In this document: piece by piece, positions 29,420 through 54,449 of the stretch
Numbering within the stretch: the stretch's first letter is position 1
Layout: each line of letters starts with the position of its first letter
Source of the DNA: Chloroflexota bacterium
GTDB lineage: Bacteria; Chloroflexota; UBA11872
Assembly (NCBI GenBank): GCA_028874315.1
Contig: JAPPKM010000071.1
Location: 226 to 64,225, forward strand
Direction of reading: 5' to 3'
DNA: 64,000 nucleotides
Made by a program: the position numbers and the translations under genes
The notes under the pieces: generated by a model
Told to the model about the DNA's origin: nothing
What the model saw: only the letters and a program-made list of their open reading frames with translations
Databases searched by the model: none

Positions 29420-29437
29420 AGCCGCGCCGGTCCCGAG

Positions 29438-35233: not shown

Positions 35234-35240
35234 TAAGTAG

Positions 35241-35429: not shown

Positions 35430-35458
35430 GGAAAATGCGCACGGGAAAGTAAGTCCTA

Positions 35459-37021: not shown

Positions 37022-37107
37022 GACGATGCTTGGAAGAGTTTTCCTCAGGAAATGCTCGGTTTCTTGATGACCGAATTGGCCTTTACGGAGAGAAAGTAGG
37101 ACAATTG

Positions 37108-38790: not shown

Positions 38791-39251
38791 GAACCCGGTG
38801 GTCAGGAAGTAGCACTCTCTGTCAAATGACAGGATCGCACACTCCGGGGAGTTCGGGCGTTTCGGACAAGTGCTGCGAGGAGGAGTCACCATCCGTGTCC
38901 TATGAGTACATGCGTGCCTCTCCTGATTTGGCGAACTGCGGAAGGCTGCCGAAATCGGCGCGGTCGCCGGCCATCAGTCGTCAGTGGTTGAAGAGCAGTT
39001 GGATGCCATGGGAGCCACAGGCGCAGTGAAACGAGCTAAGGCGACGACTATTGGTCCGCAGCCCCCAGGAGGCGAGCGAATCCAGCACATCGCGCGCTTG
39101 CGGCTCACTTGGACATTGGAGTATCTTCCCGCAGCATTTTGGTGCGCGAGAATTAGCGTCGCCTTGGGTGGTGCCGCTCGGAAGGGCTTCAGATTCGCGT
39201 TCGCGATCCACAGCTTGCAGCCGAATCTCAAAGATCGGCATCAAACGTCGA

Positions 39252-39785
39252 GTGACGTTCACAGACGCTGAAGAATCCCTGGGCGACTTCCTCGAACGCT
39301 ACCCACCGCGCCCGTATCGCCGCAGAGGCGCAGCCAACTATCCCGCAGCCGAACTGGAGGCCGTCACGGATGCTGAAGGTCTCCTGTACCTGAACGAGGT
39401 ACCGGCGCAGATGCCACAGGGGAGCCCACGGCGATCCCACGAGGATGACGGCCAGAACTGTCATATATGGGTAATCGACGAGCGCGGACGACCGTGCATA
39501 TCGCAGGCACCGCTGCCGCGACTAGGCCCTGAGAAACTGCATCACACAAATCTGACGGGAGGAGGCGAGGCGTCTATCGGCGGCGAAATCTGGTTCGGTT
39601 CGCTGCCCTTCGTATACCTGTCCGGCTCATCAGGTCGATATCCGCCTACGGGACGAGATCACCTAGAGTGCGCCGAACGCCTCTTTCGTGCTGTAGGCTT
39701 TGATGTCCACTCGCTGGGCTGGGACTCAGAGACCGATCAGCCTCTGCGGGTCTGGCTCGGAAAGTCATCGGCGGTGGGGGAATGA
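39252..39785 (+). CDS. Hypothetical protein (candidate toxin/effector partner of the Xre-COG2856 gene)
   Basis: ORF 39051..39785. Only the distal ~178 codons look protein-like (…HIWVIDERGRPCIS…HHTNLTGGGEASIGGEIWF…LSGSSGRYPP…). The GTG 39252 start is tentative. The stop overlaps the next ATG (ATGA). Confidence 0.45.
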   Translation: MTFTDAEESLGDFLERYPPRPYRRRGAANYPAAELEAVTDAEGLLYLNEVPAQMPQGSPRRSHEDDGQNCHIWVIDERGRPCISQAPLPRLGPEKLHHTNLTGGGEASIGGEIWFGSLPFVYLSGSSGRYPPTGRDHLECAERLFRAVGFDVHSLGWDSETDQPLRVWLGKSSAVGE

Positions 39786-41140: not shown

Positions 41141-41189
41141 TCGTTTGGGAGAGTACTTCGTCCTTGGTGAGTGGGTACGAACCTAGACG

Positions 41190-42230
41190 ATGACAATACC
41201 GAGAAACATTCCATGGCGGTCGACCGGAACCACTTTGGGCGCCGGAGGTCAAGGTCAGGTTCATCTCGTTGTTGACGAAAGACAGCCGGAGAGCGAAGAG
41301 TACGCTCTCAAGGTACTACGGAACACTTCTTCACAACAGGCGAGGGAGCGCTTCCGCCGGGAAATAGAGGTCGTGAAGAGATTGAATTCGAACTTTGTGG
41401 TCAAGGTGATTGATCACTCTCAAGAAGAGGACGAATTTCAGTATTTTGTCATGGAGTATTTTAGCGGGGCAAGAACTCTATCGAGCATCATTTTCGCAGA
41501 AGGCAGTCCATTTTATCGCGACGTTAGCAGATGCCTTGACATGTTTGAGCAGATACTGGCAGGCATTAGGGCGTGCGAAGCGTCTCGTCCGCAAGTTGTT
41601 CACCGCGACATCAAGCCGGACAATATCCTTGTCCTTCAAGACGGTTCCATTCGACTAATCGACTTTGGAGTCTGCCAGATCGATGATGGGGAAATGATGA
41701 CCCTTGTGGATGAGAACGTCGGAGCTCGAAATTACACTTCCCCGGAGTGTGAAGCTGGAAGTGACGATTTCATAGGAATCCACTCCGATATCTACTCTGC
41801 TGCCAAGATTCTATGGGCTGCCATTACCTCAAGGCAGGCATTTGCTCGGGAGGACCCAGTCTTTACAAATAGGTCGATGGAAGCGATGCTCCCTCAGATT
41901 CCGGAGACTTGGCACCTTACCCATATCTTTGAAAAGACGATTCGTCGTAACCCCGCAGACAGATTCCAGAGTGTCGGTGAGGCCCTTGAGCTGGTTCGAC
42001 ACGTGCGACATTTGGTTCAGTCAGGGATTCCACCACTCAAAATACTAAGTCGCTATTGTCCTTCGTGCGGATGGCCGGCTGTGAGCGAGTTTCCCCTGTC
42101 ACACGAAGTATTCGGCAATCCCAACCCGCCTGGCGTGGCATCTTTGATGTGCAGCTTGTGTGGGTTTGGCTTTGTTAGGAATATGGAGGTATGGCGCGAA
42201 AGCCTGGAGCGTCGTGAATCGCTCAGCTAG
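41190..42230 (+). CDS. Ser/Thr protein kinase with C-terminal CxxC…CxxC zinc-ribbon-like tail
   Basis: 'LGAGGQGQV', 'YALKVL', 'VVHRDIKPDNILV', 'LIDFGVC', 'YTSPE'. Tail 'CPSCGWP…CSLCGF'. Confidence 0.8.
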   Translation: MTIPRNIPWRSTGTTLGAGGQGQVHLVVDERQPESEEYALKVLRNTSSQQARERFRREIEVVKRLNSNFVVKVIDHSQEEDEFQYFVMEYFSGARTLSSIIFAEGSPFYRDVSRCLDMFEQILAGIRACEASRPQVVHRDIKPDNILVLQDGSIRLIDFGVCQIDDGEMMTLVDENVGARNYTSPECEAGSDDFIGIHSDIYSAAKILWAAITSRQAFAREDPVFTNRSMEAMLPQIPETWHLTHIFEKTIRRNPADRFQSVGEALELVRHVRHLVQSGIPPLKILSRYCPSCGWPAVSEFPLSHEVFGNPNPPGVASLMCSLCGFGFVRNMEVWRESLERRESLS

Positions 42231-42638
42231 AGTGGCTAGGAAGAAGAGAGTTGGATCAGATACGAGGGCCGGAGGATTTAGCAGTCCGAGATATTGACGC
42301 GTAGAGAAGATAACTCTCCTTAATATGCGGAGTGAACTGGATCCATCAGATGGAGGACCCAGGCTTAGCAGGAGGGAGATGAGTGGTCATCCCAATAGAC
42401 TTCGTGACCAGTGTGAACCTCCATGACCCTCGGCTGATAGCCGTGACGCGTCGCGGCAACTTCCACACAGGCGAGGCGGACTATGGTTCCGGGAGTTGAC
42501 GCGGGCTGTGGAGTCTCCGCTGAGCGGCGTCAACAAACCACTCCAACCATCGATCAATAAAGGCTTGCTCTTCACCTTGATCGATTGGTCGGAGCGGCCG
42601 CGCATTCTGATACTTTCCGCTGGCCGCTTGGTGGGGAT

Positions 42639-43916
42639 TCAACGCAAATGGACAGATTGAAGGTCTTTGAAAAGTGACCAAAACGACTTGTCGTACCAAC
42701 GAAAATGCCCTTTATTTTGGGGATCACAATACCAAAGGGAATGTGACCTACCTTCATATCCGCTTGGATTTCTCGGCATTCTGACCGATATCTGTGCATA
42801 GGCGACTGTATCAATGCTCCTCCGAGAAGAGTTTCCGGGACTATCATTACTCGCTAGCTTCGGCCGGGCAACGCTCAACTGACCGCTAGCCAGGGACCAA
42901 TTGAGTGTTCCACCTTTATCCGATAATTTAGTGTTCGGAGCGTTTTGAAGTAACTGATCGTGGAGTAAGTCAATGATTGGTGCTAGTGAGCGTTGAGCTA
43001 CATCATACAACTCTAAGCGGTGTTCTGCTTCGATTCGGGCAGCTGTACGTCTTCGGGACTCTTCGGCTTCTTGCTGAACGACTTGTGCGTTGATTTCCTG
43101 GAGCAAGGACCCGACACCGGAAGTAGGCTGTACACTCCGCGGCCATCGCGCCAGCAAGTTTCGCGGTCGCGGTCGAGCTTCAGGGGATTTGTACAGACAT
43201 TCGTCAATCAACGAGCGAAGTTGCGTTGGAATCCCGGGAATTGAATCTGGGAGTTCGTTCAGATGCTGACGACGATAATCGTGCTCGGCCGGTCCGACGA
43301 ATGGACGTCGTCCTGCAAGTAGCTCATAGGCAACGACGCCTAGCGCGTACACATCCGTTGAACTACTGGCTCGATCTCCATTCCACTGCTCCGGTGCCGC
43401 ATAGGCAGACGTCTTCGCATACTTCTTCGTATCAGGGGCTGTCGTTGCATCGGCGTACCTTGATATTCCGAAGTCTGCAAGGCACCAGCGCCCGTCATGA
43501 AACAGCACATTTTCTGGCTTGATGTCCCGATGGACAACTCGGTCCTCAATCTCCACCAGTGCGGTTGTGATATCGACGAGAATCGTGACTGCCTCAACCG
43601 GCTCGATCCGGCCATCGGACGCGATGAGATGGTCGCGGAGTGATTGCTCCGCTTCAGGCATTACAAGGAGCCAGCAGTCCGAAGTCTCGCCCTTATCTAG
43701 GATTGGTATGACGTTTGGGACCCCGTCGAGATCTTCAAAGAGTAGCTCCCGTTCTGCGCCGGGTGCCTTTGGGATAAACTTCACGACACCTGCCATGTCT
43801 TCGTCAGAACGAGCGGCGTAAACGAGTCCAAAGCCGCCGGAGCCTATCTGATGCTCGATGCGCCAGTTACGGTCTAAGCAGACTTCCTCTCCGATGTAGT
43901 CTGAAACTGGGTGCAT
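42639..43916 (-). CDS. Ser/Thr protein kinase with unknown C-terminal domain (possibly frameshifted near its end)
   Basis: 'IGSGGFGLVY', 'VVHRDIKPENVLF', 'LADFGISR', 'YAAPE'. A protein-like ORF in another frame continues from about 42700 to 42481. Confidence 0.8.
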   Translation of the reverse strand: MHPVSDYIGEEVCLDRNWRIEHQIGSGGFGLVYAARSDEDMAGVVKFIPKAPGAERELLFEDLDGVPNVIPILDKGETSDCWLLVMPEAEQSLRDHLIASDGRIEPVEAVTILVDITTALVEIEDRVVHRDIKPENVLFHDGRWCLADFGISRYADATTAPDTKKYAKTSAYAAPEQWNGDRASSSTDVYALGVVAYELLAGRRPFVGPAEHDYRRQHLNELPDSIPGIPTQLRSLIDECLYKSPEARPRPRNLLARWPRSVQPTSGVGSLLQEINAQVVQQEAEESRRRTAARIEAEHRLELYDVAQRSLAPIIDLLHDQLLQNAPNTKLSDKGGTLNWSLASGQLSVARPKLASNDSPGNSSRRSIDTVAYAQISVRMPRNPSGYEGRSHSLWYCDPQNKGHFRWYDKSFWSLFKDLQSVHLR

Positions 43917-44554
43917 CGACTAGCGTCCCTCGGATGCCCAAACGTTAGTGATCTTTGCTTCCGATGATATCAGCCATGGGCAATTTGATCTCTGGGATAC
44001 CTCGATCTGGCTGCTGGCTCCAGGCTTGGGCCTGCCTGGCGACCAGGACTCTTGGAGGCGTATCTCGGTCATGGTGCAACACTGTACGGGCGCTGAGTCC
44101 CGATGGCGTTCGGCTGGCGGACCTGCACGCGACTGAGCGCGCCGTCGCTGGTCTGCACAAGGATGCCAGCTTCGTTTTCTGCCGGTGGTCGTCGAAGAGG
44201 TCGACAACTGGCCCGGAGTTATCGACATCGGTCGATGCCACGAGAATCGCCAGTCAGAATACTCCGAGGCCAAGCTGCAATAGCCTGTCCTGGGCAATAT
44301 GAGCGCGACTCGTGGCAACTCGCCTTGCTAAGTCCATTGAGACTGTCCTCGGTTCCACCAGTCGTCCAAAACGCCACGCTGTGCACGTCCGGCCGAAGAG
44401 GGCCAAACTTCGCTGCGTACAACGTCGTCGAACCTCACTCATGGCCCCGTAGACAGGGTGTCGCCAGCTCCTGTCATCTCTATGTGCACCACTCGGGCTC
44501 TGTAGGCGAGCGTGGACTCAATGCGACTGTGTCCTGGGCGCCAGTTGAGCAGGA

Positions 44555-45198
44555 GTACGGAATCCTGCCTTCCACCCGGATCCTTGGCTCGGCACCCTGA
44601 GGTTCGACCGGCCGTGCACCACGAGGAGTCCGATGTCCCAGGCTGCGGTCTCGCCGATCTCCGGGCGGCCCCACGCGCGTCGGACGGCCCGCCGCGGTCG
44701 GCGGTCGTTCGCCACCTACTACTGCTGGGTCGATGACGCTCTGCGGCATCGTGCCGACGGGTATCGGCTGCTCGACTCCCCTTTGGTCGGCCTTCCTGGC
44801 GTCCAACGGTTGGCGCGTCGGCGCTTTCGCCGCAGCGCCTTCGCCGATGTACATGCGACACGAGCGCTGCTCCAGCAGGCGACTGAGCAGGCCTCGGCGA
44901 TTCTGACCCCACGGCAGGCCCTGGCGTTGCAGCTCTTCTGCGACGGCCAGCCGATGGCCGCCATCGCAGCGCGGTTGGGCCTGCGCAGCCGCCAGCATCT
45001 CTGGGCCGCCTACCGACGGCCGGCCGTGGAGGCGGTGACCCGCGAGTTTCTGGCACTGGCGCAGGCGGATTTTTCCCCGAATTAGGGTAGAATTTCGGTG
45101 CCATTGTTCCTGGAAGGGGGCAACGGCCTGCAAATCGGCCTTGAAGCCGTAACAGGTTTGGCACGGCTTGAGGGCGGGGCTTCTGACCGCGGTACTTC
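44555..45198 (+). repeat. Module copy 1: leader + small HTH gene + conserved ~115-nt tail
   Basis: Aligns along its whole length with 47369..48016 and 52325..52966. Confidence 0.85.
44633..45085 (+). CDS. Small HTH protein (sigma-70 region-4/LuxR-like), island copy 1
   Basis: SD GAGGAG lies upstream. 'LTPRQALALQLFCDGQPMAAIAARLGLRSRQHLW' is an HTH-like block. Paralogue of 47447..47899. Confidence 0.65.
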   Translation: MSQAAVSPISGRPHARRTARRGRRSFATYYCWVDDALRHRADGYRLLDSPLVGLPGVQRLARRRFRRSAFADVHATRALLQQATEQASAILTPRQALALQLFCDGQPMAAIAARLGLRSRQHLWAAYRRPAVEAVTREFLALAQADFSPN

Positions 45199-45278
45199 GC
45201 AGATCACCGACAGGTCTGGCATTAACCGACATCACGTTACTCGACCTTTGGCGGCCACTCGTCACCGACTGCAATGCT

Positions 45279-46190
45279 TCATTCGCTGTCAGCGTTATCA
45301 GCTTTTCCGATAGAGGCGTTTCTTTCGCTATAGACCTTCCCTTCAATAACAAATTCGGTGATTTGTTGACCATCACGGTCGTGCATGACTACGAATCTGT
45401 AAGGCACTTCACGCCCGTCAAGGAACAGCGGAGCTGCTCCGCCTTGTTCTCCTATCTTTCCGAAGGTAAGGCGAGGTCTTGACTCTTCCTCCAAGTCCTC
45501 GTATCCATGCTCCGAAACTGCAACAATTAGGCGCTCAATCAAGTACTCAAGCCGCCTGATCTGTTCGGATGAAATCACAGGGTCAGTCCTTCCCATATGG
45601 AACACTTGGCCTCTCAGCCTGGCTAAATCTCTAACTAACTGAGAATCACCTGAGTGGAGCTGAATACCACACGAACTAGCGAACATGTCGAGTTTATTAC
45701 GTAGTGGCCACTCGGCTTGGAAAACTCTACTTCTAATGAGATCATCAGATACTTCCAACGGATCGCTTGAGCGGACTGGTAGATTCAACTCCGCAATGAG
45801 ATTTTGAATTGTAGATTTTACGGAGGATCTCTTACCTGCGAATACTCCTGGATATTCGATGCAGTTCAACACGGACTCCAACGAAATCCAGGTTGCTATG
45901 AATCGGTCCGCAATGCCCTCTTCCATTGAGGCAATCGCTAACCATCGCAACGATCGCTGGATACCCGACGAGAGACGCTTTTCTCGTGCGCGGGGTGTTA
46001 GTTGACCAGCCTGCTCCAGGAATCCGCCTGCCTCAGCAGCCTCAAGGAAGTGATCAACAAAGTACTTGATCTTGTCGAATCCCGTCTCAAGATCAGTGGC
46101 CTCATTCTGGTCGACAAGTGGAATCGTCCTGATCCACCCTTTGACTTCGTACTGCTCCCGCAGGAGCAGCCAAGGGTGCAACCGTACCAT
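45279..46190 (-). CDS. HEPN-like domain protein (probably the C-terminal part of a larger frameshifted gene)
   Basis: Rx4H 'LRGQVFHMG' in a helical context. Its reading frame is open upstream to 46250 and overlaps the tail of ORF 45998..46981. Confidence 0.55.
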   Translation of the reverse strand: MVRLHPWLLLREQYEVKGWIRTIPLVDQNEATDLETGFDKIKYFVDHFLEAAEAGGFLEQAGQLTPRAREKRLSSGIQRSLRWLAIASMEEGIADRFIATWISLESVLNCIEYPGVFAGKRSSVKSTIQNLIAELNLPVRSSDPLEVSDDLIRSRVFQAEWPLRNKLDMFASSCGIQLHSGDSQLVRDLARLRGQVFHMGRTDPVISSEQIRRLEYLIERLIVAVSEHGYEDLEEESRPRLTFGKIGEQGGAAPLFLDGREVPYRFVVMHDRDGQQITEFVIEGKVYSERNASIGKADNADSE

Positions 46191-46981
46191 GGACCTACCA
46201 AGGTCGACATCCCACTGGAGTTCATCTGACGAGTATCGTGTATCAAGTGACTAATCCCAGTGCGGAGAGCGAAGGAGACTAAGTCAGCTGTGAACTGGGC
46301 TCGGGTGAGGGCGAGCTTCTCGGCCTCAATTGGGTTGCGGGCGAAGACCATTCCCCACGCCTTTGGGTTTTCGGGCTGCCAGACGGCTTGCTTTTTTCCT
46401 ATGTCAGCACCGGAAAGGAGAGGCGCGAAGAGGTCGTCGTCGCCCGCTACTACGCCAAAGTCTCCGGCAAAAAAGGACTTTATGTCGCCGGTGGCCGTAA
46501 GCCCGCTTAGGGGAACGGCGTAGAGGAATGGGCGGTGTTCTTGATTCAGGGTGAGACCATCGACCTTTACGCCTCGTACAAGCCCTGTAAGTTGGGGAAA
46601 CCAATAGGCTATTTCCATAGTTGGCATTCCAAAAAACTCGATGTTCTTGACAGACGCTCGCTCTAATTCCCAGATGGCATCTTCAAATGAGAGTTCTATG
46701 GAGCCGTCATCGGTCCGTGTAGCCCTGACACATAGTCCCCTATGAAATAGGTCATGCGGGCCCTTCAAGACCGCTTCGCTGTGATAGTCCCAGCGAGCTT
46801 CTCCAGATACACTCACTGTAGCTGCGGCCGATTTGACAATGCGACCGTCTTCGAGTCGCTCATTGAAACTTATCTCTCTAATCGAGTCACTTGGAATGGA
46901 GTCGTTCGCGAAACAGAGGCTTACTCCGACCTGGCTTCGTTCGTTCGACTCGTGGTCTGTCGATCTTGTATCAGCGTCCAA
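45998..46981 (-). CDS. Hypothetical protein (probable N-terminal part of the same gene; last ~80 codons look out of frame)
   Basis: The sequence is protein-like from 46981 to about 46250 (…FTADLVSFALRTGISHL). After that it is low-quality sequence overlapping 45279..46190 in another frame. Confidence 0.45.
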   Translation of the reverse strand: MDADTRSTDHESNERSQVGVSLCFANDSIPSDSIREISFNERLEDGRIVKSAAATVSVSGEARWDYHSEAVLKGPHDLFHRGLCVRATRTDDGSIELSFEDAIWELERASVKNIEFFGMPTMEIAYWFPQLTGLVRGVKVDGLTLNQEHRPFLYAVPLSGLTATGDIKSFFAGDFGVVAGDDDLFAPLLSGADIGKKQAVWQPENPKAWGMVFARNPIEAEKLALTRAQFTADLVSFALRTGISHLIHDTRQMNSSGMSTLVGPWYGCTLGCSCGSSTKSKGGSGRFHLSTRMRPLILRRDSTRSSTLLITSLRLLRQADSWSRLVN

Positions 46982-47368
46982 AGAGTTCCTCTCTAGGAGT
47001 GTTTGATGTCGAGACGTGCCCTGACTGCAGCAGCTGGGATTCGGCTACGAGATCGGCTCCGAACAACAGTATGGATTGAAGTGTACGGACGTCGGCCAGC
47101 GGTGCCACGAGTATGCTGAGTTTTCGGACGAAGGGGCCACCATTGGCAAGGGTTGGTTGAAGGCACCATCGCGCGATGGCGGTTCGTTCCGTTTGGCCGC
47201 CGGCGGCGGGTGAAACAGAGACGCAATCACGCAGCCGTCGATCAGAGCGACCAAGAGGCTGGATCCGACTGCCAGCCTGCGTGAGGCAGCTTCTCGACTG
47301 CAACGTCTGGGGACCTACGGCGCCTAATGTCGTCTCGCCGCGCCAGCAACTCGGGCGACGGTCCGAAC

Positions 47369-48016
47369 GTACGGAATCCTGCCTTCCTCTCGGATCCTTG
47401 GCTCGGCATTCTGAGGCACGACCTTCCGCGCACCCAGAGGAGTCGGATGCCCCAGGCCGCGGCCTCGCCAATCTCCAGGAGGCACCACGCGGGCCGCGCA
47501 GCGCGCCGCGGCCGGCGGTCGTTCGCCGCTTACTATCGCTGGGTCGACGACGCCCTGCGGCACCGGGCCGACGGATATCGCCTGCTCGACTCGCCTTTGC
47601 TCAGCCTGCCGGGCGTCCAACGGCTCGCCCGCCGACGCTTTCGCCGCAGCGCCTTCGCCGATGTGCATGCGACGCGGGCGCTCTTGCAGCAGGCGACCGA
47701 GCAGGCTGCGGCGATTCTGACCCCGCGGCAGGCGCTGGCGCTGCAGCTCTTCTGCCACGGCCAGCCAATGGCCGCCATTGCAGCTCGGCTGAGCCTGCGC
47801 AGCCGCCAGCATCTCTGGGCGGCCTACCGGCGGCCCGCGGTGGAGGCCGTCACGCGCGAGTTCCTGGCGCTGGCGCAGGCGGAATATCCCCCGAATTAGG
47901 GTAGAATTTCCGTGCCATTGTTCCTGGAAGGGGGCAACGGCCTGTAAATCGGCCTCGACGCCGTAACAGGTTTGGGATGGCTCGCGTGGGGTGCGTGTCA
48001 CCGCCGTACTTCTAAG
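47369..48016 (+). repeat. Module copy 2: leader + small HTH gene + conserved tail
   Basis: See copy 1. The tail ends in 'gtacttctaag', the same junction as at attR. Confidence 0.85.
47447..47899 (+). CDS. Small HTH protein (sigma-70 region-4/LuxR-like), island copy 2
   Basis: ORF 47327..47899. The ATG at 47447 is homologous to the copy-1 start and has an upstream GAGGAG. Confidence 0.65.
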   Translation: MPQAAASPISRRHHAGRAARRGRRSFAAYYRWVDDALRHRADGYRLLDSPLLSLPGVQRLARRRFRRSAFADVHATRALLQQATEQAAAILTPRQALALQLFCHGQPMAAIAARLSLRSRQHLWAAYRRPAVEAVTREFLALAQAEYPPN

Positions 48017-48049
48017 TTCTGAGCCCAGGGTGCAAATCTCGTCTGGTGG
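48009..48049 (+). repeat. Possible decayed att (tRNA 3'-half) remnant
   Basis: 'cttctaag' is followed by about 33 nt that match the tRNA 3' half at roughly half of the positions in an ungapped comparison. Confidence 0.3.
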
Positions 48050-48117
48050 ATCTCGTCATTTGGTGGTTCGGGCCCCAAACCATTTGATCGTTCTCCTAGA
48101 CTGGCTGTGCACTCAAT

Positions 48118-48714
48118 CTAAAATTGCCTCCAGTCATTGTCTTCCCATTTGAACAATGAAGGACTCTTCGGGCCGTTCAACCAGTTTTCTGGATGTTCTA
48201 CAAAACACAAATACAGGTTTCCGTTGCAACAACTGGCAATCTTGGAACACATGGACAGGATCTGTTCCTGGCGAATCCCCTGGTAAGTCGAAACGAACAG
48301 CTGGCTCTCTGAGCGCCCCATGACAAGCTTACTAAAGTCCTTGGTGATCTGTCGGCTGTTACTTTTGTCGAATTCGGACTCGACTTGCCAGAGGCACTTT
48401 GAAATGTATGGGAGGCATTTCCCTTGCCCGATTGATTCAACCCATCCAATCTGACAAACCGATATGTCGAACAATAACTCATTCAACATAAAATCTCTGT
48501 TGTCTCTATTGTTCATCCAAAATGCACGTTGATTCTTACTGGAATAATATTCCCGAAAGGCATCCCCCAAACAGTCTATCCACACGTTAGCGCAGTCTCT
48601 ATGAATTTGACCCAGAGAATTGTTGGAAGAGTCCCCGGAAGAGGCCGTTAGCTTCACTGCATTCTCCCAAGACTTATGTATGAGAATTTCAAGGTCAATA
48701 CTTCTGTCCGTCAC
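48118..48714 (-). CDS. Hypothetical protein, strongly AT-shifted
   Basis: 198-aa ORF, clearly the AT-richest coding stretch of the window by eye. 'LLFDISVC…WQVESEFDKS' is a faint PD-(D/E)xK-like pattern. Confidence 0.5.
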   Translation of the reverse strand: MTDRSIDLEILIHKSWENAVKLTASSGDSSNNSLGQIHRDCANVWIDCLGDAFREYYSSKNQRAFWMNNRDNRDFMLNELLFDISVCQIGWVESIGQGKCLPYISKCLWQVESEFDKSNSRQITKDFSKLVMGRSESQLFVSTYQGIRQEQILSMCSKIASCCNGNLYLCFVEHPENWLNGPKSPSLFKWEDNDWRQF

Positions 48715-48787
48715 TTCGATTCCTCCTTAGTAGGTTCAAGACAAGCGTCTCACGGATGGCCACCACATGGGAATGTGTAGAGGCCTC

Positions 48788-48978
48788 GACACCCAATGTA
48801 CGCACGACAGATTACGCTTACGTCACGTTCGGCATTCCCGAGATGACGCGCGATGACAGTTCAGTGTCCGCGAGCCAACGTACCGCGAGGGGGCGGGAAC
48901 ACTCACGCCGCTGATTCTGGAGACGCGTCCAACCGCCGCCGTTTACGGCGCGAAGCGAAGGCATCACGGTTGCGGCCG
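48788..48978. repeat. R repeat copy 1 (~190 bp), upstream of minus-strand gene 48118..48714
   Basis: Aligns with 51731..51922. Perfect cores are 'cgatgacagttcagtgtccgcg' (48851..48872) and 'ggggcgggaacactcacgccgctgattctgga' (48890..48921). Confidence 0.8.
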
Positions 48979-49926
48979 GGTAGTGGTCAAGTTTGATCAG
49001 CGGAGGTCGTGACGCCGCTTTGACACGGCGCGCGCGTCCGGTTCCTCCGCTTCGAGGAGGCCCACCACGTCGGCCATCGTCCAGGGGCGCGTCTCAAGGC
49101 CGGCAGCCATCGCCGGCGTCGTCGGCGTGCCGTGCGCGGCGCGGGTCAGCGTCGCGTGCGGCCGGACGAAGTTGTAGACCATGAAGTGGAGCGCGACGGC
49201 GCAGCTCAGGTTGTAGACCTTCTTCAAGAACGCATTCGTCAGGCGGGTGAACCGCCGCATCGACATGCGCATGGTGGGGTTCTGGCGCTCCACGTGCGAC
49301 GTGCTGACGTGTGCAGGGCCAGGGTCGCCGGGCACGACGACCGGCCGCGACGCGATGCACACGGGCGGGCTGTACGCGCGCTCGCGGTCCATGGGGACAG
49401 CGTAAAGCTTCCGCAGCTGCGCATAGTCCACGGTCGCGTCGAAGGCCTCGATCACGGCCTCGCGGTAGAAACTGGCGGCGTCCGAGGTGAGTTGGAAGCG
49501 TCCACGGATGAGGCGGCCCAGGTCCAGCAAGAAGCGCTGCGCGTTGTGGATGTCGCGGTTGCCCACCAGCCACGTCGGCGCCAGCTTCGTGTCCGTGCAG
49601 ATCGCCGTGAACGTGTACACGTCGCCGATCCCAAACTAGCCGCGCCGCTCGGCGGGCACGTGCTTGGCCTTCATGCCGACGTAGGCCCAGATCTCATCCA
49701 CCTGGACGCGCGTCAGGGCGAGATCGCGCAGGACCTCGCCCTGGTAGGCGGCCACCACGGGTCCCAGGTCCGTCAGGAGCTTGAGCACCGTAGGCTTGAA
49801 GACCGGAGCCACCCGCGTGATGGCATTGATCGCAATGCCCTCGGACAGCAACGCCACGACCTGGGCGCGCGTCTCGCGACTCAACCGGCGCATCGGGTGG
49901 CCCGTGTATCAGACTTTCGTAGTATT
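48979..49926. mobile_element. IS1-family insertion sequence (ends approximate)
   Basis: Encloses the transposase. Imperfect terminal inverted repeats 'ggtagtggtcaagtttgatcagcgg' and '…ccgtgtatcagactttcgtagtatt' match at about 14 of 25 positions. Homology between R copies stops exactly at the left end. Confidence 0.5.
48997..49893 (-). pseudogene. IS1-family transposase interrupted by an in-frame TAG
   Basis: ORFs 49636..49893 and 48997..49620 are in the same frame, separated by TAG (49636..49638): …HVPAERRG*FGIGDVYTFTAICTD… Blocks 'VQVDEIWAYVG', 'TSDAASFY' and 'HVERQNPTMRMSMRRFTRLTNAF' are IS1-like. Confidence 0.7.
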
Positions 49927-50013
49927 GCTTAGGGTAGTCAGGTTGTTAACCCGTGGCATACGCGATACGGTTGCAGCACCGGGACACCGACCGGGATGCG
50001 AAAGGATGGGGCC

Positions 50014-50211
50014 ATGACGACTGAGGCGGAACGGTTGTCACGGCTGGAAGGGGCCTACGAGCACCTCGCGACCAAGGCCGACATTGCTGATCTTCGTGGC
50101 GAGCTGAAGGTCGAGTTGACCAGGGTCGAAACCCGGCTCACGCGATGGGTGATCGGCGCGGCTGGCGCTGCGGCGGCCGTCGTGATCGCGGCCGATCGGC
50201 TGTTCGCATGA
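50014..50211 (+). CDS. Small coiled-coil + C-terminal TM protein
   Basis: ATG at 50014 after AAGGA. MTTEAERLSRLEGAYEHLATKADIADLRGELK…VIGAAGAAAAVVIAA. Confidence 0.45.
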   Translation: MTTEAERLSRLEGAYEHLATKADIADLRGELKVELTRVETRLTRWVIGAAGAAAAVVIAADRLFA

Positions 50212-50420
50212 CCCGCGGTGGCCCCGCCAGCCATCGCTATCGGCCCTCCCCAGCCGACGCTGAGCGGCTCCAGGCCGAATTGCTCCGATTCCATGACCAC
50301 CTGCGCAAGGGTGGCTACGCCCCACGGACTGCGGCGACCAAAGCTGGCGGGGCCGAGTGGTTCGTGCGCTTTCTCAACGGCGAGGAGTTCCGAAAGACTG
50401 ACGGGCGGTTCCGCCCATGA
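50208..50420 (+). CDS. Small hypothetical protein
   Basis: ATGA overlap with the previous stop. 70 aa (MTRGGPASHRYRPSPADAERLQAELLRFHDHL…). Confidence 0.4.
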   Translation: MTRGGPASHRYRPSPADAERLQAELLRFHDHLRKGGYAPRTAATKAGGAEWFVRFLNGEEFRKTDGRFRP

Positions 50421-50593
50421 CGCACCGCGGCCCACCGGACCCGAACGAGATGGCCTTCCGCATCGTCCAGGCGGCCGTGGTCGCTGGCCGCAAGGGTGGC
50501 CAGGCTCGCGCCAAGGCCCTCACGGCAGCCGAGCGCACGGCGATTGCCCAACAGGCAGCCGCCAAGCGCTGGGAGCAGCAGCCCTCCGCCTAG
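50417..50593 (+). CDS. Small basic protein (58 aa, below the ORF-track cutoff)
   Basis: ATGA overlap with the previous stop. MTHRGPPDPNEMAFRIVQAAVVAGRKGGQARAKALTAAERTAIAQQAAAKRWEQQPSA. Confidence 0.4.
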   Translation: MTHRGPPDPNEMAFRIVQAAVVAGRKGGQARAKALTAAERTAIAQQAAAKRWEQQPSA

Positions 50594-50594
50594 T

Positions 50595-51644
50595 TCAGGC
50601 TGCGCACCGCTCCACGTAGTCGCGCGTGAACAGGACATAGCTCAGCATGTCCGGCCAGTCCGACACGTCGCTATCGAAGTCGGCGGCGCCCCTGGGATGG
50701 GACACCAGCACGTCGTAGGCCCGCCAGGTGGACCATGCGAAGTCGTCGGCTGGCGGGCCGGTGTGCCCGAAGATCCCGTGCCAGGCGAGGCCCTGCGTGA
50801 TGAAGGCCCAGACCTCGTCCACCACGCAGGCGTCGAAGTTGCGCGGCCACCCGAACGGGGACACTGCGTGCCAGAGCTCGTGCGCGATGGTGACGGCCAG
50901 CACCCCAGGATTCGCATGCCGGCGCGCCGGGTTTACCAGGATCGTGTGTGAGCGGGGGTGATAGGCCGCGGACACGATGCCGACCGCAAACCGGCCGTCG
51001 ATGTCGAAGCGCACGTTCACGGTGTCATGCCCTGGCTGGAGGCGGAAGAAGTCCCACAGCTGGATGCTTCGGAGGATGTCCCACGCGGGCTGGAGCCCAG
51101 GATCAATCTGCGGGCCGCGGGCGACGGGCGGAGGGCTCGGCTCTGGTGGCGGCACGTACACCGGGGCCAGCGGGCAGGCGGAGCTCTGCCACGGGCAGGC
51201 CCACGCGCCGTAGAGCACGCCGGAATCGGTCCCGCGCAGAAAGGCGTCCACGGCCCCCCGGCCAATGACATCGGCTGCCATGCGGGCGGCCAGCTCGGGC
51301 TGCCCGCTTCGCGCCTGGGCGACCTCGTACACCCGCCCGTAGTCGGGATGCGTGGTGGGATCGGGCGCGGCCGGCGGCGGCGGAGCTGGCGTCGACGCGG
51401 GCGGGTGTTCGTGTCGCCAGGTGAAGCGGCGCTGGTCCCGGTGCTCGTGCTGGCACACCGCTTCGGCAACACGGACATCGCCGTAGACCCGCGGGTAGAT
51501 CCCGACATTCTGCTCGCGGCCGGCCGCGAGCTCGTAGGCGTCATTGGCGTTGATACACGGGGTGGCATGGTGGGCTGCCGCACTGGCGAGCGTGAGCACA
51601 CCCAGGGCGACGGCGAGGGCCAGGGCGCGAGGGATGGCCAGCAT
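50595..51644 (-). CDS. Secreted protein with HExxH metallopeptidase motif
   Basis: N-terminal signal-like 'MLAIPRALALAVALGVLTLASAAA', a Pro-rich linker, then 'VTIAHELWHAV'. Confidence 0.55.
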   Translation of the reverse strand: MLAIPRALALAVALGVLTLASAAAHHATPCINANDAYELAAGREQNVGIYPRVYGDVRVAEAVCQHEHRDQRRFTWRHEHPPASTPAPPPPAAPDPTTHPDYGRVYEVAQARSGQPELAARMAADVIGRGAVDAFLRGTDSGVLYGAWACPWQSSACPLAPVYVPPPEPSPPPVARGPQIDPGLQPAWDILRSIQLWDFFRLQPGHDTVNVRFDIDGRFAVGIVSAAYHPRSHTILVNPARRHANPGVLAVTIAHELWHAVSPFGWPRNFDACVVDEVWAFITQGLAWHGIFGHTGPPADDFAWSTWRAYDVLVSHPRGAADFDSDVSDWPDMLSYVLFTRDYVERCAA

Positions 51645-51730
51645 GTGGGGACTCCCGGCCAGCCACGCAAAACGCGGCCCCGGATAGACCGCTGAGCAAC
51701 TGACCTACTACCGGAATATCAGGAGGCTGG

Positions 51731-51922
51731 GACGCCCAATGTACGCACTGCAGATTGCGCATTCGTGACGTTTGGTCGTTCCGCAGATGTCATTCGATGA
51801 CAGTTCAGTGTCCGCGGTCTAACTGACAGCGACGGGGCGGGAACACTCACGCCGCTGATTCTGGACACATGTCCGTCGGCTGCCGCGTACGCCGGGCAGC
51901 GGAGGCATCACGATCGCGGCCG
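51731..51922. repeat. R repeat copy 2, upstream of minus-strand gene 50595..51644
   Basis: Aligns with 48788..48978. Cores at 51795..51816 and 51834..51865. Confidence 0.8.
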
Positions 51923-52324
51923 TGCACGACCACTAGACCTCGGCCAGCTAAGTGTTTGACGGTGCACGGCAGTCACGGCAGCGGCGGGTGCACAACGGCC
52001 GCGGTCGCCGTGACCGGGACGGATGTCGCCGACTAGCCGCCACCACACGGCCGGATCCGCCCAGTTCGGCGGAGCATGCAGCGCCCGGCCCTCGCGTTGG
52101 GTAGGTTCATCGACTGCCTCCAGTAGCCACCCTGCCTGGCGTCCGACGGGCGTTGATCGCACCTGTGGATGGCCGGGGATAGGTTAAGGCGCAGCGCCAC
52201 GCCTGCGGCGTGACCGTCGTCATCGCCAGTGGCGTACCGGGCGCGGCGCTTAGGGGCCTCCGTCAGTTCGCAGCGAGACCGTCGCGGTACGGCGGCGCGT
52301 CACCCTCGCACCCGGCGAGACTGT

Positions 52325-52966
52325 GTACGGAATCCTGCCTTCCGCCCGGCACCGTAGCTCGGCACCCTGAGGAAAGGCCGCCCATGCACCAGGGAGGAGT
52401 CGGATGCCCCATGCCGCAGCCGCGCCGATCTCCGGGCGGCCTCACGCGCGCCGGGCAGCCCGCCGCGGCCGGCGGTCGTTCGCCGCGGACTAATCGGTGG
52501 GTAGACGATGCGTTCCGAGACTTGGCTTGCGGCTATCGCTTGTGTAGCTCAGCACTCGTCGGCCTGCCGGGCGTCCGACGCCTCGCGCGCCGCCGGTTTC
52601 GCCGCAGCGCCTTCGCCGACGTGCATGCGACGCGGGCGCACCTGGAACAGGCGACCGAGCGGGCCTCAGCGATCCTGACCCTGCGGCAGGCCCTGGCACT
52701 GCGGCTCTTCTGCGACGGCCAGCCGATGACCGCCATTGCGTCGCAACTGGGTCTCCGCAGCCGCCAGCATCCCTGGGCCGCCTACCGACGTCCGGCCGTG
52801 GAGGCGTTGACCCGCGAGTTCCTGGCGCAGGCGCAGGCCGAATTTCCCCCGAATTAGGGTAGAATTTCCGTGCCATTGTTCCTGGAAGGGGGCAACGGCC
52901 TGTAAACCGGCCTCGAAGCCGTAACAGGTTTGGGATGGCTCGCGCGGGGTGCGTGTCACCGCGGTA
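52325..52966 (+). repeat. Module copy 3: leader + disrupted HTH gene + conserved tail, abutting attR
   Basis: Aligns with copies 1 and 2. The tail continues directly into the 40-bp att repeat. Confidence 0.85.
52404..52857 (+). pseudogene. Small HTH gene copy 3, disrupted (nonsense + 1-nt insertion relative to copies 1/2)
   Basis: The homologous ATG at 52404 gives MPHAAAAPISGRPHARRAARRGRRSFAAD*. The conserved C-terminal HTH part continues in another frame (ORF 52210..52857). Confidence 0.6.
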
Positions 52967-54449
52967 CTTCTAAGCCGTGGGTCGCAGGTTCGAATCCTGC
53001 CGGGGGCGCCGCGGCCGCTTCCGCTCGTCGCGCGATAGCTGTGGCCAGGCCGTCAAAGATCCACGCATGGACCGGATAGAGAACGTACCAGTACGCCAGC
53101 CCGGCCAGGCCCTTGGGCACGAACACCGCCGTCTGCTCCAGGTTGGTTTTGCCCTCGCAAGTCGAGGATAAGCGGAACTGGAGCCAGGCCCTCCCGGGAA
53201 GCTTCATTTCAGCTCGCAGTCGAAGCAGTGAATCGGCTTGCAGGTCCTCCACGCGCCAGAAGTCCAGAGCATCGCCAACTCGCAGATCATCCGGATGTCG
53301 TCGCCCCCGGCGAAGTCCAGCGCCGCCGAGCAGCCGGTCGATCAGTCCGCGAACTCTCCAGGTCCAGTTGGCGAAGTACCAGCCTCGGGATGAACCGATA
53401 CTCGTGAGCACCCGGTACACCTCCGTGGCCGGAGCCGCAATCCTGCGAGTCCTGCGCTCGACGATCGTGCCTCGATTGGACTCCAAGACGACCCGTGCCT
53501 CGAGTTCCGGCGTTGGGCCTGCCGCGTCCGACCAGGACGTGTCGATGCATCCCGCATCGAGATCCTGAATCACCCGATCAATTGCCGAGGCGTAGTCCTG
53601 CGGCTCGATGTGAGGAAAGAGCGTGCGAGCGAGGTGGTCGGTTACGACGACGTCGTTGCGAAGCCCTTCCACGAGCGCCCCGGTGATGCCGGCCGGGATG
53701 GGCGTAATCCAATGAACCCAGTACGAGGACAATCGAGGGGTCAGAACCGGGACGGGAAGCAGGAATCGACGCAGACCGCGAGCCTTCGCGTAGCCGAGAA
53801 TCAGCCCCCGGTAGGTCGTCACATCCCTACCGCCAATCTCGACGATGCGCCCGGCACTCTCCGGAACGACCAGCGAAGTGACCAGGTAGTTCAGAACGTC
53901 ATCGACGGCGATGGGCTGGATTCGAGAATAGATCCACTTGGGACAGACCATTACCGGGAGACGTTCCACGAGATAGCGAATCATCTCGAACGAGATGCTG
54001 CCCGAGCCGACAATTACCGCAGCCCGGAACTCTGTGACGGGAACTCCGCCCTCCCGAAGCGCCTCTCCAGTCTCATGGCGCGAGCGCAAGTGCTTGGACA
54101 GATGGGCACCGGGCTCTCCGAGACCACCCAGGTAGATGATGCGGCTGACGCCGGCCTGTCTGGCCGCGCGACCGAACGCGCGGGCAGCAGAGGCGTCCAG
54201 ATCTCCGAAGCGCGCTCCCTTCGACATGCTATGAATCAGGTAGTAGGCGACGTCCACGTCTTCGAGCGCCTTCGAGAGGTCTCGAGCATTGAGGACATCC
54301 CCGACCACAACCTCGACTTGACCGGACCAGGGGCGAGAAGCGGCATGCGCCCTGCTTCGCACGAGAACGCGAATTCGGTGGCCTTCTTCAAGCAGCCGAG
54401 GCACCAACCGTCCGCCGATATATCCGGTCGCCCCGGTGACCAGGATCAT
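52956..54449 (-). CDS. NAD(P)-binding (atypical SDR/NmrA-like) protein with extra C-terminal domain
   Basis: 'MILVTGATGYIGGRLVPRLL' Rossmann start. 497 aa. The last ~17 codons are encoded by the att repeat and island edge. Confidence 0.75.
   Translation of the reverse strand: MILVTGATGYIGGRLVPRLLEEGHRIRVLVRSRAHAASRPWSGQVEVVVGDVLNARDLSKALEDVDVAYYLIHSMSKGARFGDLDASAARAFGRAARQAGVSRIIYLGGLGEPGAHLSKHLRSRHETGEALREGGVPVTEFRAAVIVGSGSISFEMIRYLVERLPVMVCPKWIYSRIQPIAVDDVLNYLVTSLVVPESAGRIVEIGGRDVTTYRGLILGYAKARGLRRFLLPVPVLTPRLSSYWVHWITPIPAGITGALVEGLRNDVVVTDHLARTLFPHIEPQDYASAIDRVIQDLDAGCIDTSWSDAAGPTPELEARVVLESNRGTIVERRTRRIAAPATEVYRVLTSIGSSRGWYFANWTWRVRGLIDRLLGGAGLRRGRRHPDDLRVGDALDFWRVEDLQADSLLRLRAEMKLPGRAWLQFRLSSTCEGKTNLEQTAVFVPKGLAGLAYWYVLYPVHAWIFDGLATAIARRAEAAAAPPAGFEPATHGLEVPR
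52967..53006 (+). repeat. attR core: 40-bp copy of the tRNA-Arg 3' half
   Basis: Identical to 26366..26405. The upstream part of the tRNA is absent, so this is not a second tRNA gene. Confidence 0.9.

Follow-up and report, generated by a model that had tools for sequence, protein, structure and literature searches.

Related Systems Described Previously

The ICESt1/ICESt3-CIME composites of Streptococcus thermophilus are said to have been described by Pavlovic in 2004 and Bellanger in 2011, and tDNA islands with an anticodon-centred crossover were reportedly treated by Williams in 2002. The tandem accretion of ICEs and IMEs was reviewed by Guedon et al. 2017 (PMC5704250), and the accretion/CIME model is established. 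In this model, integration at a target gene is followed by decay of the element to a unit that has lost its integrase but not its att ends, newcomers use the flanking att site, and composites with internal att sites can excise partly or as a whole (PMC5704250). Anticodon-centred att sites are common (PMC4383910). The Islander survey screened out Xer-type recombinases and counted a tandem only if each member had its own integrase; in its list of 3919 islands, tandems with at least two members number 125 and those with at least three only 4 (PMC4383910).

The island considered here lies in a 64-kb stretch of DNA from a Chloroflexota bacterium (the window). It is probably a composite built by site-specific accretion, in which three repeated modules represent the integrase-distal ends of related integrative elements that form a family in one Chloroflexota lineage. 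Accretion is a known route of genomic island growth; the element family is undescribed. As in ICESt1/ICESt3-CIME, there are internal cores, integrase fragments in relatives, and empty sites. Unlike that system, the hosts are uncultured Chloroflexota, the target is a tRNA anticodon loop, each unit keeps a 650-bp gene-plus-arm module beyond the short att repeat, arrays reach up to seven modules with Arg-type modules also present inside a tRNA-Gly island, and excision and circular forms of the units are predicted from the sequence. The island resembles those of Islander in that a tyrosine integrase adjoins the regenerated tRNA, the far end is marked by a displaced fragment from the 3' part of the tRNA, and the identity block runs from the anticodon loop with a symmetric stem on either side. 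It differs from them in the Xer-like integrases and in the lack of an integrase in most array members.

Organization of the Island

The integration target is tRNA-Arg(TCT) at 26334-26409(+) (ARAGORN), the 3' part of which, from the anticodon loop on, is now supplied by the element. A 46-nt direct repeat with one mismatch (repeat finder) bounds the island. The attL identity block, 26366-26411(+), consists of the core CTTCTAAG (26366-26373) and the element-borne tRNA 3' half, and attR, 52967-53012(+), of the core and the displaced original tRNA-Arg 3' half, with C where attL has T. The 8-bp core is the anticodon loop of the tRNA plus the next base. In at least 11 related genomes of the genus, attB is empty and reads through without a break. 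Between attL and attR, which enclose all three units, the island would comprise an integrase-bearing mobilizable element (26366-45202) and, at 45203-48016 and 48017-52974, two CIME-like units that lack an integrase.

In unit 1, the interval between tRNA and int is the P' arm (26412-26609(+)), holding motif B AACCTGTTA at 26436, motif A ACGGCCTGT at 26507 and motif C GACACGCACC at 26542. The adjoining gene, 26610-27569(+), codes for a Xer-like tyrosine recombinase (Pfam Phage_integrase, 3.8e-34). Its open frame reaches up to 26376; homology to relatives begins near the ATG at 26610/26616, which gives a protein of ~319 aa, and the alignment with the integrase on contig C65 of the same genome (G000) starts at residue 77. 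The NCBIfam matches are to XerC/XerD/XerA-like families, every one below its cut-off, and the integrases of the family appear to be Xer-like and Xer-sized. Of the backbone genes, 27633-29419(+), one (27633-28499) encodes an unnamed 288-aa protein and the other a Replic_Relax protein (28514-29419; Pfam PF13814, 4.1e-33), and the backbone DNA is 77-92% identical to that of two relatives, G010 and G011. The variable cargo (29420-44554), absent from the islands of both, includes a type IIG restriction-modification gene, a pentapeptide protein, an M78/HTH pair and two Ser/Thr kinases.

Unit 2 carries at 45203-47368 a cargo of ~52% GC that is unique to the window's genome among 41 relatives. Its two minus-strand ORFs (45279-46190 and 45998-46981) have no family match in profile searches, and the unit has neither an integrase nor a tRNA-like left end. 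Unit 3 begins with a foreign tRNA-like 3' half, 48017-48052(+), a P'-type left end whose likeness is ~50% to the half of the host tRNA-Arg and 70% to the one at G001:C48 7895. The cargo behind it (48053-52324) is a mosaic: G010:C24 shares the ORF 48118-48714(-), the stretch ~48977-49806 is IS-like and present in multiple copies, and the ORF 50595-51644(-) has no match. Unit 3 also contains a ~210-nt direct repeat (48770-48978 and 51713-51922), which is part of a stretch also present ahead of other modules. It has no integrase either, so that the original prediction of integrase-less distal units holds for both.

The Repeated Module

Alignment and a repeat finder applied to the 64-kb window reveal three direct copies of the module, in one orientation within 8.5 kb and with pairwise identities of 82-86%. 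Each measures ~650 bp and is made up of a 150-codon gene, a 109-nt tail and the 8-bp core. Module 1, 44555-45202(+), has an intact HTH gene (44633-45085), a tail at 45086-45194 and a degenerate core CTTCGCAG at 45195-45202. In module 2, 47369-48016(+), the gene (47447-47899) is likewise intact with 150 codons, the tail lies at 47900-48008, and the core at 48009-48016 is perfect. Module 3, 52325-52974(+), has a tail at 52858-52966, the core CTTCTAAG at 52967-52974 and a gene disrupted near codon 30 by an in-frame TAA (52491-52493) and then a 1-nt insertion; a shifted frame (52210-52857) retains the coding for residues ~31-150. The left edge is sharp at GTACGGAATCCTGCC in all copies (44555, 47369, 52325), and the Shine-Dalgarno sequence GAGGAG stands upstream of the ATG in each.

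From stop codon to core the tail measures 109 nt in all three copies, and tails are 87-97% identical to one another vs. 82-86% for the whole module. Tail 3 continues directly into attR. Tail 2 runs into its core and then into a stretch resembling the tRNA 3' half, with 27 of 46 positions matching when the core is counted; tail 1 ends at the degenerate core, followed by unrelated sequence. The analysis thus agrees with what had been proposed for the three paralogous modules, their common start, the Shine-Dalgarno sequence and ~150-codon ORF, the two lesions of copy 3, a tail conserved at least as well as the ORF, and the surroundings of each tail. The ranges had been located correctly but drawn inconsistently, the 8-nt core being counted for copy 2 and omitted for copies 1 and 3.

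Distribution in Related Genomes

The full set comprised 37 module copies from about 11 Chloroflexota genomes (that of the window and its relatives), with 1-7 copies per related genome; both edges are sharp in 19 full-length copies. Many non-att locations, which had been named as a sign of a generic repeat, are matched in position but not in meaning: about seven further copies lie on C65 within a tRNA-Gly island, but each stands at an att-like junction, and no copy was found outside the two tRNA-anchored islands in the 3.3-Mb genome. The tRNA-Gly island repeats the pattern with a tail type of its own: behind all three of its Gly-type tails come CTTCCAAG and a tRNA-Gly half (100, 93 and 92.5% identical); P' remains persist after the first two tails, and an int fragment also after the first. 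Arg-type modules are located downstream of conjugation genes in four genomes, two of which (G000 on C65, and G020) contain the full unit of tRNA-Gly-type P' arm, integrase, conjugation genes and module, its integrase being 43% identical to that of the window. Besides mobilizable elements, with a Xer-like tyrosine recombinase and Replic_Relax, the family would include conjugative ones that have a type IV secretion system.

Tandem arrays with internal integrases are present in relatives. The array of G011 begins with tRNA-Arg, int and relaxase and leads to an HTH-tail; one tail is followed by att (41/46) and a 92-aa int fragment, another by att (44/46) and a full int (93%), with a further HTH-tail beyond. 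The island of G010 has the same three-module layout and an int 96% identical, with no cargo in common. The proposed repeated integration at the same tRNA is supported by the internal tails of G011, with their well-kept tRNA-Arg halves and full or fragmentary integrase; the wholly different cargo of G010 and the empty sites are further evidence.

The Tail as a Probable Recombination Arm

All 37 tails end at GGT[A/T]CTTCTAAG, where homology ceases; beyond the core comes the 3' half of the host tRNA-Arg, an integrase that is either full or truncated, or a tRNA-like half of foreign type. Conservation is 0.56 upstream, 0.81 in the UTR, 0.81-0.88 in the ORF, 0.88-0.93 in the tail, 0.97 in the core and 0.50 downstream. 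The HTH gene, with dN/dS of 0.13, is under purifying selection. The rate of change in the tail is about a tenth of that at synonymous sites nearby, and adjacent tails are 88-97% identical although the gene has dS of 0.96; judged by these rates, purifying selection can be shown to act on the tail as well as on the gene.

The tail has motifs A, B and C in common with the P' arm next to the integrase, and the window contains them at no other place. For a single element the sharing is only moderately significant (shuffle test, 36/2000). G010 and G011 keep these motifs in their P' arms. Tails adjoin genuine tRNA-Arg halves (attR) in G000, G010, G001, G011, L034, L035, L038 and L041. The reading of the tail as the P arm of attP is supported, since it always ends at the anticodon-loop core, abuts attR in at least five genomes and shares three motifs with the P' arm. 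The original prediction of an element-side arm of attP, for which arm-site repeats had been suggested as a check, agrees with this. Post-core sequences are also tRNA-like beyond chance, with an enrichment of T-loop-like motifs: TTCGA occurs at +10 to +40 in 6 of 18 junctions, where 0.45 would be expected, and 12 of 18 have T at +4. Each module would combine an HTH-protein gene, a 109-bp protein-binding P arm and an 8-bp crossover core, the crossover probably falling inside CTTCTAAG, on either side of which lie imperfect inverted arms of dif-like type.

The module protein is basic, with 150 aa. Its assignment as a sigma-70 region-4/LuxR-like HTH stands at the fold level only: Foldseek finds resemblance to ECF sigma region 4 and LuxR/FixJ domains with a probability of 0.97-0.99 and TM of 0.63-0.73, with weak E-values of 0.3 or more, and the Pfam HTH_23 match is below threshold. 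Judged from their association, the probable reader of the tail is the HTH protein encoded in the same module, because the integrase, with its start taken from the alignment, appears to be without a lambda-type arm-binding domain and because one type of module accompanies integrases that share only 43% identity. The HTH protein may act on the tail as an architectural or directionality factor. As in lambda-type attP, an arm of ~110 bp lies beside the core and has invariant blocks that recur in the opposite arm; as with Xis/RDF, the element encodes a small basic DNA-binding protein. Unlike lambda, the recombinase appears to have no arm-binding domain at its N terminus, the candidate accessory protein resembles sigma region 4/LuxR and not the winged-helix Xis, and the HTH gene is at the P-arm end, distant from int when integrated and adjacent only in the circle.

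Alternative Explanations

The integrase-less units might instead be trans-mobilized mini-elements of an active cassette platform, integron-like in logic. Each unit would consist of tRNA-like half, cargo, HTH gene, tail and core; the resident Xer-like recombinase would excise between successive tail-core sites and insert at any, with arrays growing at the distal attR-type end and defence cargo being shuffled. Like integrons, the island has a Xer-related tyrosine recombinase next to an array, units ending in a conserved ~120-nt site and cargo that is often defence-related. Modules outnumber integrases ~3:1 across loci, units are bounded exactly at the core and their cargo is unrelated from one side to the other, close islands (G000 vs. 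G010) differ in all units, and an intact, selected HTH gene is kept in many integrase-less units. Moreover, the foreign tRNA-like halves include at least three classes that turn up repeatedly in different genomes, with different cargo behind them; such halves are unable to complete the host tRNA, which therefore points to insertion at non-tRNA tail-core sites. We nevertheless regard this platform as unlikely. The integrase fragments and P' remains past several internal junctions represent real decay of once-complete elements, about 14 of 37 HTH genes are broken (all seven on C65 among them), the P' arm motifs are missing at internal junctions without a downstream integrase, and no identical unit was found in two contexts. 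Unlike integrons, the integrase lacks the IntI signature (TIGR02249, 60 bits vs. a cut-off of 265), the tail has no attC-like hairpin fold, and the units are several kb long, with genes on both strands, their own HTH gene and a tRNA anchor. The accretion reading, for its part, accounts for the module excess only loosely, by pure random decay through target size, and the missing P' arm motifs speak against it as well.

Conservation of the tail as a small RNA or transcription signal, such as a terminator for the HTH gene or a promoter pointing outward and driving int after circularisation, seems very improbable. The tail does lie directly 3' of the stop codon, would point across the core toward int in the circular form, and contains -10-like TAGAAT or TATAAT in Arg-, Gly- and Leu-type tails. 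However, it has no Rfam match, folds no better than shuffles on either strand, yields no called sigma-70-type promoter or intrinsic terminator, and the suggested check for covariation gave no compensatory changes in 37 copies; an outward promoter would in any case be compatible with the P-arm reading. Amplification in situ, by local duplication or unequal crossing-over inside one element, could explain closely spaced direct repeats of single orientation, but it is contradicted by the tree and the junction sequences, and we give it hardly any credence. The copies diverge by 14-18% with dS near 1 and form no clade: copies 1 and 2 have their nearest relatives in G010, and copy 3 is equally near a G010 copy and copy 2. 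Each has its own upstream sequence class, of which another genome contains an orthologue, and the junctions bear att-type sequence. The sharp edges and the ~650-bp size with one small ORF would also suit an autonomous MITE- or IS-like repeat targeting CTTCTAAG. This origin is contradicted by the lack of dispersed copies in the genome, of visible terminal inverted repeats or target duplications, and of any transposase signature in profile searches of the module protein, by an orientation constant relative to tRNA and integrase, and by a left edge that runs into further homology in subsets of copies; its likelihood is close to nil.

Order of the Probable Accretion

Under the preferred reading of site-specific accretion, the integrase-less units would stem mostly from deletional decay and may still be movable in cis or in trans via surviving cores. 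Unit 2 does not appear cleanly att-bounded and would need a post-accretion deletion, because at junction 1, where it meets unit 1, the core is degenerate and a tRNA-like half is absent. The proposed age order, with the newest element proximal and remnants distal, is not supported. At junction 2, between units 2 and 3, and also at junction 1 of the G010 island, the acceptor strand of the tRNA-like half is unable to pair with the host tRNA-Arg 5' strand, and therefore such a unit cannot have sat at a live tRNA when the proximal element arrived. A unit with a foreign half would either have inserted at an attR-type site or have come together with the whole composite.

The Repeated Module and the Bounds of the Island

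Alignment of the three stretches reveals a module of ~650 bp in three direct copies (44555-45202, 47369-48016 and 52325-52974) that are pairwise 82-86% identical, and a repeat finder concurs. The left edge of each copy is sharp, at GTACGGAATCCTGCC, and each copy carries a GAGGAG ribosome-binding site. The HTH ORF is intact in copies 1 and 2 (44633-45085 and 47447-47899, 150 codons each). In copy 3, it is disrupted: there is an in-frame TAA at 52491-52493, plus an insertion of 1 nt, and residues ~31-150 are still encoded in a shifted frame. A tail of 109 nt follows the stop codon in each module, and the tails are 87-97% identical among themselves, exceeding the identity of the whole modules. 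Each module closes with an 8-nt core.

The sole tRNA gene of the window is tRNA-Arg(TCT) (26334-26409, ARAGORN), with a tyrosine integrase 200 nt downstream. attL (26366-26411) and attR (52967-53012) are identical at 45 of 46 positions, the tRNA-Arg gene is intact at attL, and the identity begins at C32 of the anticodon loop (CTTCTAA). The island belongs to the anticodon-loop class of tDNA-integrating islands. Inside it, CTTCTAAG occurs only at 26366, at the end of tail 2 (48009) and at the end of tail 3 (52967); tail 1 terminates in a degenerate core, CTTCGCAG, at 45195. Unit 2 (45203-48016) ends on the right in a tail-core and has a degenerate left junction; unit 3 (48017-52974) begins with tRNA-like sequence on the left and likewise ends in a tail-core. 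The modules, ORFs, tails and att sites of the original prediction are all recovered by the alignment and the repeat finder.

The lone mismatch between attL and attR (26404 vs. 53005) lies at the terminal base of the acceptor stem. The working tRNA-Arg, with its half from the element, has G1-U72, whereas G1-C72 would result from the displaced original half and also from the attL of the related genome G010.

The Tail as a Probable Attachment-Site Arm

Conservation across 19 full-length copies rises from 0.56 to 0.88 at the left edge, is 0.81-0.88 in the gene, 0.88-0.93 in the tail and 0.97 in the core, and is 0.50 right after it. The HTH gene has a median dN/dS of 0.13 with a dS of 0.96 (12 full-length coding sequences), the former value indicating that the gene is real. 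With a divergence of 3-12%, the tail changes ~10 times more slowly than the adjoining synonymous sites. It is built of invariant blocks with variable spacers between them.

A structured non-coding RNA was rejected as an explanation of the tail, because an Rfam scan of 44000-53200 gave no match at E <= 1 and consensus folding of 37 copies on both strands revealed no compensated pairs. An attC-like hairpin was rejected as well: two tails folded as single-stranded DNA, on both strands, equal their shuffles (z from -0.88 to +0.01). No sigma-70 promoter or intrinsic terminator was called in module 1.

Candidate binding blocks of the 117-bp tail-core and of the P' arm (26412-26609, between tRNA-Arg and int) are ACGGCCTGT, AACCTGTTA, GGTGCGTGTC and TTCCTGGAA. 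The tail block ACGGCCTGT is found again in the P' arm in direct orientation; CCAAACCTGTTACGG and GGTGCGTGTC recur there inverted, the former as a perfect 16-mer in the relative G011. Three common blocks are present in the P' arms of the window's own genome, G010 and G011, and the shuffle test for blocks of the tail and P' arm gave 36/2000. Within the 64-kb window, the three blocks are confined to the P' arm and the tails, and AAACCTGTTA is also found in Gly-type tails. Being common to the tail and the P' arm, the blocks resemble the arm-type binding sites of an attP. The suggestion that the tail is the element-side arm of attP is thus upheld.

Related Islands and Probable Accretion

A first search found the tail in 8 of 41 relatives, all of the same genus, and later searches showed that a sister genus also carries copies. 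The tail-bearing genomes are all uncultured Chloroflexota MAGs. G010 has the layout of the window, namely tRNA-Arg, an integrase 96% identical, a relaxase-like gene, three modules and the last tail at attR; the two islands have no cargo in common. G011 contains a four-tail array. One of its internal tails leads into a tRNA-Arg half (41/46) and then a 92-aa integrase fragment; another leads into a 44/46 half, behind which lies a complete integrase (93% identical) accompanied by a backbone and HTH-tail of its own. The tail adjoins the species' own tRNA-Arg half at L034, L035, L038, L041 and G001:C70, loci in related genomes. At least 11 genomes of the genus have empty sites, to which the joined island flanks align uninterrupted (3-1199 of 1200).

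Judged by sequence comparison, the arrays of the relatives and the empty sites are the hallmark of site-specific accretion in which elements decay to units without an integrase. The accretion/CIME model is established (Guedon et al. 2017, PMC5704250). The accretion of related elements at one tRNA, as originally proposed, is borne out by the internal tRNA-half and integrase junctions of G011, by the layout of G010 and by the empty sites.

G011 has an empty syntenic tRNA-Arg site on contig C26 (117875-119071), plus a 41-kb island contig, C35 (1-41074), that ends at tRNA-Arg. This reflects either polymorphism for the island in the sampled population or a second copy of tRNA-Arg. Homologous junctions on C35 of G011 (~10700) and on the chromosome of G020 (~1155170), another relative, bear a second partial att (CTCTAAGCCGTG / CTCCAAGCCGTG) ~30 nt past the core, which suggests nested or repeated recombination.

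Foreign tRNA-Like Halves and the Order of the Units

The sequences after internal cores were collapsed to 18 independent non-host junctions. TTCGA lies at +10 to +40 in 6 of these 18 (0.45 expected), T is at +4 in 12 of 18, and the first 12 nt match the host arm ~3 SD over control offsets. Many post-core sequences resemble the 3' half of a tRNA, with T arm, acceptor-like strand and CCA, and at least three classes of such foreign halves are common to several genomes. None has a match among the tRNAs of this genome, the nearest acceptor end being that of tRNA-Lys(TTT). A pattern search across the phylum turned up real tRNA-Arg(TCT) genes in a distant family whose T arm is similar but whose acceptor strand differs. 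The 5' strand GCCCCCG is shared by the host tRNA-Arg(TCT) and the two genes examined from that family, and the acceptor strands of the foreign halves misfit it.

Because of this misfit, a unit headed by a foreign half would inactivate the tRNA if it adjoined it. Unit 3 is therefore probably no older resident displaced outward by a newer proximal element, and the proposed order, with the newest element proximal and the remnants distal, is not sustained. Going by the junction sequences, the window's unit 3, like unit 2 in G010, most likely either entered at a tail-core site of the attR type or came within a composite. Junction 1, with half of its core destroyed and nothing tRNA-like behind it, suggests a later deletion. 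In-situ duplication of the modules is excluded by the module tree, in which the three window copies are not grouped, and by their separate upstream sequence: each copy has its own upstream class, which has an orthologue in another genome.

Other Copies in the Same Genome and the Wider Family

BLAST of the whole 3.3-Mb assembly yielded ~7 further module or tail copies, all on contig C65 and on one strand, and none outside C65 and the window island. Positions 1-124227 of C65 form a composite island of ~124 kb at tRNA-Gly(TCC), the contig start falling within the tRNA gene. It includes a conjugative element of ~20 kb with an integrase (43% identical to that of the window), a VirB4/TraC-like ATPase, TrbL/VirB6 and an M23 peptidase. 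The first Arg-type module stands after the conjugation genes (19073-19705) and further ones follow every 3-15 kb; there are seven between 19 and 48 kb, with the HTH gene broken in 7/7. The tRNA-Gly 3' part is repeated at 111.9, 114.4 and 124.2 kb, each time behind a Gly-type tail and CTTCCAAG. A 31%-identical HTH homologue precedes the first Gly-type tail, and a partial copy of that module precedes the second. P' remains follow the first two tRNA-Gly repeats, and an integrase fragment also follows the first.

A Leu-type example at tRNA-Leu(GAG) is divided between contigs C60 (25619-26323) and C101 (21456-22661). The former carries a 34%-identical HTH homologue and a TAGAAT-bearing tail, facing tRNA-Leu; on the latter, a 55-nt identical repeat is followed by an integrase 43% identical to that of C65. 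The Gly- and Leu-type examples imply that an HTH gene, tail and core at the integrase-distal end are a trait of a wider family that targets anticodon loops.

On the G020 chromosome (~1175700-1176400, locus L018), the tRNA-Gly-type left end of a conjugative element is fused to a truncated Gly-type HTH gene, itself part of a 4-kb element at tRNA-Thr(GGT). An island anchored at one tRNA can thus contain modules of another tRNA type.

Integrase, HTH Protein and a Proposed Mechanism

Models of the XerC/XerD/XerA type match the integrases of the window and C65 over the full ~300 aa of their core and catalytic domains, with scores under the equivalog cut-offs. The integrase scores are 174 bits against XerC (cut-off 335) and 166 bits against XerD (cut-off 330), so a XerC/XerD chromosome-dimer resolvase was rejected and the protein is Xer-like in architecture only. 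Homology between the two integrases starts at ATG 26610/26616, which, with the start inferred from the alignment, leaves no room for a lambda-type arm-binding domain.

An Arg-type module lies downstream of conjugation genes in four genomes. The full conjugative unit of ~20 kb is visible in two of the four (C65 and G020), where the integrase is 43% identical to that of the window and the P' arm is a tRNA-Gly half. Arg-type modules thus accompany a divergent integrase and Gly-type tails are paired with Gly-type HTH genes, so the tail travels with the HTH gene and not with a particular integrase. The HTH protein scores 19.9 bits against Pfam HTH_23, under the 24.6 cut-off. Its AlphaFold model is confident in the C-terminal half only (pLDDT 83-88), and Foldseek relates this half to ECF sigma region 4 and LuxR/FixJ domains (probability 0.97-0.99, TM 0.63-0.73, weak E >= 0.3).

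The co-travelling of tail and gene, the fold match and the apparent lack of an arm-binding domain led us to propose that the HTH protein binds the tail. By association, it would bind the motifs of both the tail and the P' arm and might serve as an architectural or directionality factor for the Xer-like recombinase. The latter would act on a dif-like core in which CTTCTAA is flanked by imperfect inverted arms. Once circularized, the element would have its HTH gene, tail, core and int contiguous and co-oriented. A -10-like TAGAAT or TATAAT is present in all three tail types, and this box and the arrangement in the circle make an outward promoter conceivable; that it feeds int after excision is possible but unsupported.

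The same modules could instead be read as a portable site, HTH gene plus tail, with its own reader protein. Any tail-core site would then let Xer-like recombinases capture and shuffle, in trans, integrase-less units that begin with a dummy tRNA half, and the tRNA-Arg and tRNA-Gly arrays would be an integron-like platform that collects Chloroflexota defence genes and is cross-served by integrases of different tRNA specificity. We regard this as rather unlikely, since integrase fragments lie behind several junctions, P' motifs are absent from integrase-less junctions, no unit was seen in two contexts and the cargo of units 2 and 3 was not found in another array. Many integrase-less units do keep an intact, selected HTH gene, and modules outnumber integrases by ~3:1, which leaves room for active trans-mobilization of such units; however, the HTH gene is broken in ~14 of 37 cases, including all seven on C65. 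Accretion with decay is the reading that we prefer.

Comparison with Known Systems

The window island shares with ICE/IME and CIME composites the direct repeats of the target site, the regenerated target gene, the empty sites and the internal att-type sites, which divide the units (a perfect core at 48009 with a tRNA-like half, and the degenerate core at 45195). It differs from integrons: the integrase is unlike IntI (TIGR02249, 60.2 bits vs. a cut-off of 265, over the C-terminal ~80 aa only), and attC folds as an imperfect single-stranded hairpin, which the tail does not. A MITE or insertion sequence was rejected for the module, since its copies in this genome lie in two tRNA-anchored islands only, neither terminal inverted repeats nor target duplications were seen, and there is no match to a transposase family.

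The Islander collection (3919 islands) contains 2083 anticodon-centred islands but only 4 tandems with at least three members, and it leaves out Xer-type integrases (PMC4383910). The window island was probably built through the known accretion/CIME pathway, acting on a tDNA site centred on the anticodon; pathway and site type are well documented (PMC5704250, PMC4383910). What is new is the element family and its host phylum, the terminal gene-plus-arm module, the fact that this module is common to integrases of different tRNA specificity, and the length of the arrays.

The island offers a clean multi-genome case of the assembly of a defence island in an uncultured phylum, with a crossover that can be mapped to 8 bp by sequence alone. 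Members of the element family, undescribed so far, have an Xer-like integrase together with either a Replic_Relax protein or a type IV secretion system, and end in an HTH-plus-arm module. They escape island finders that discard Xer-type recombinases or require every array member to have an integrase of its own. Were the HTH protein the arm reader for a recombinase without an arm-binding domain, this would be a distinct solution to directionality control.

Gene Content of the Units

The backbone directly after the tRNA comprises the tyrosine recombinase (Pfam Phage_integrase, 3.8e-34), a 288-aa protein with no family in Pfam, NCBIfam or PADLOC, and a Replic_Relax protein. Defence-type cargo follows: a type IIG restriction-modification gene, a pentapeptide protein, an M78/HTH pair and two Ser/Thr kinases. 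No integrase was found in the inter-module stretches 45.2-47.4 kb and 48.0-52.3 kb, and the ORFs of units 2 and 3 have no family match in Pfam, NCBIfam or PADLOC.

A piece of unit 3 (48977-49806), probably an insertion sequence, is multi-copy in relatives: G013 has seven ~72%-identical copies, and there are others in G012, G015 and G020. The overlapping ORFs of this region, 49132-49932(+) and 48997-49620(-), have no family match. Unit 3 also contains a direct repeat of ~210 nt (48770-48978 and 51713-51922, 76-79% identical, 2.9 kb apart). The second copy is part of a ~500-nt stretch (51712-52225) that shows similarity in all reading frames and no coherent ORF, and that recurs at 18251, 22332 and 40571 on C65 and in G010, again upstream of modules.
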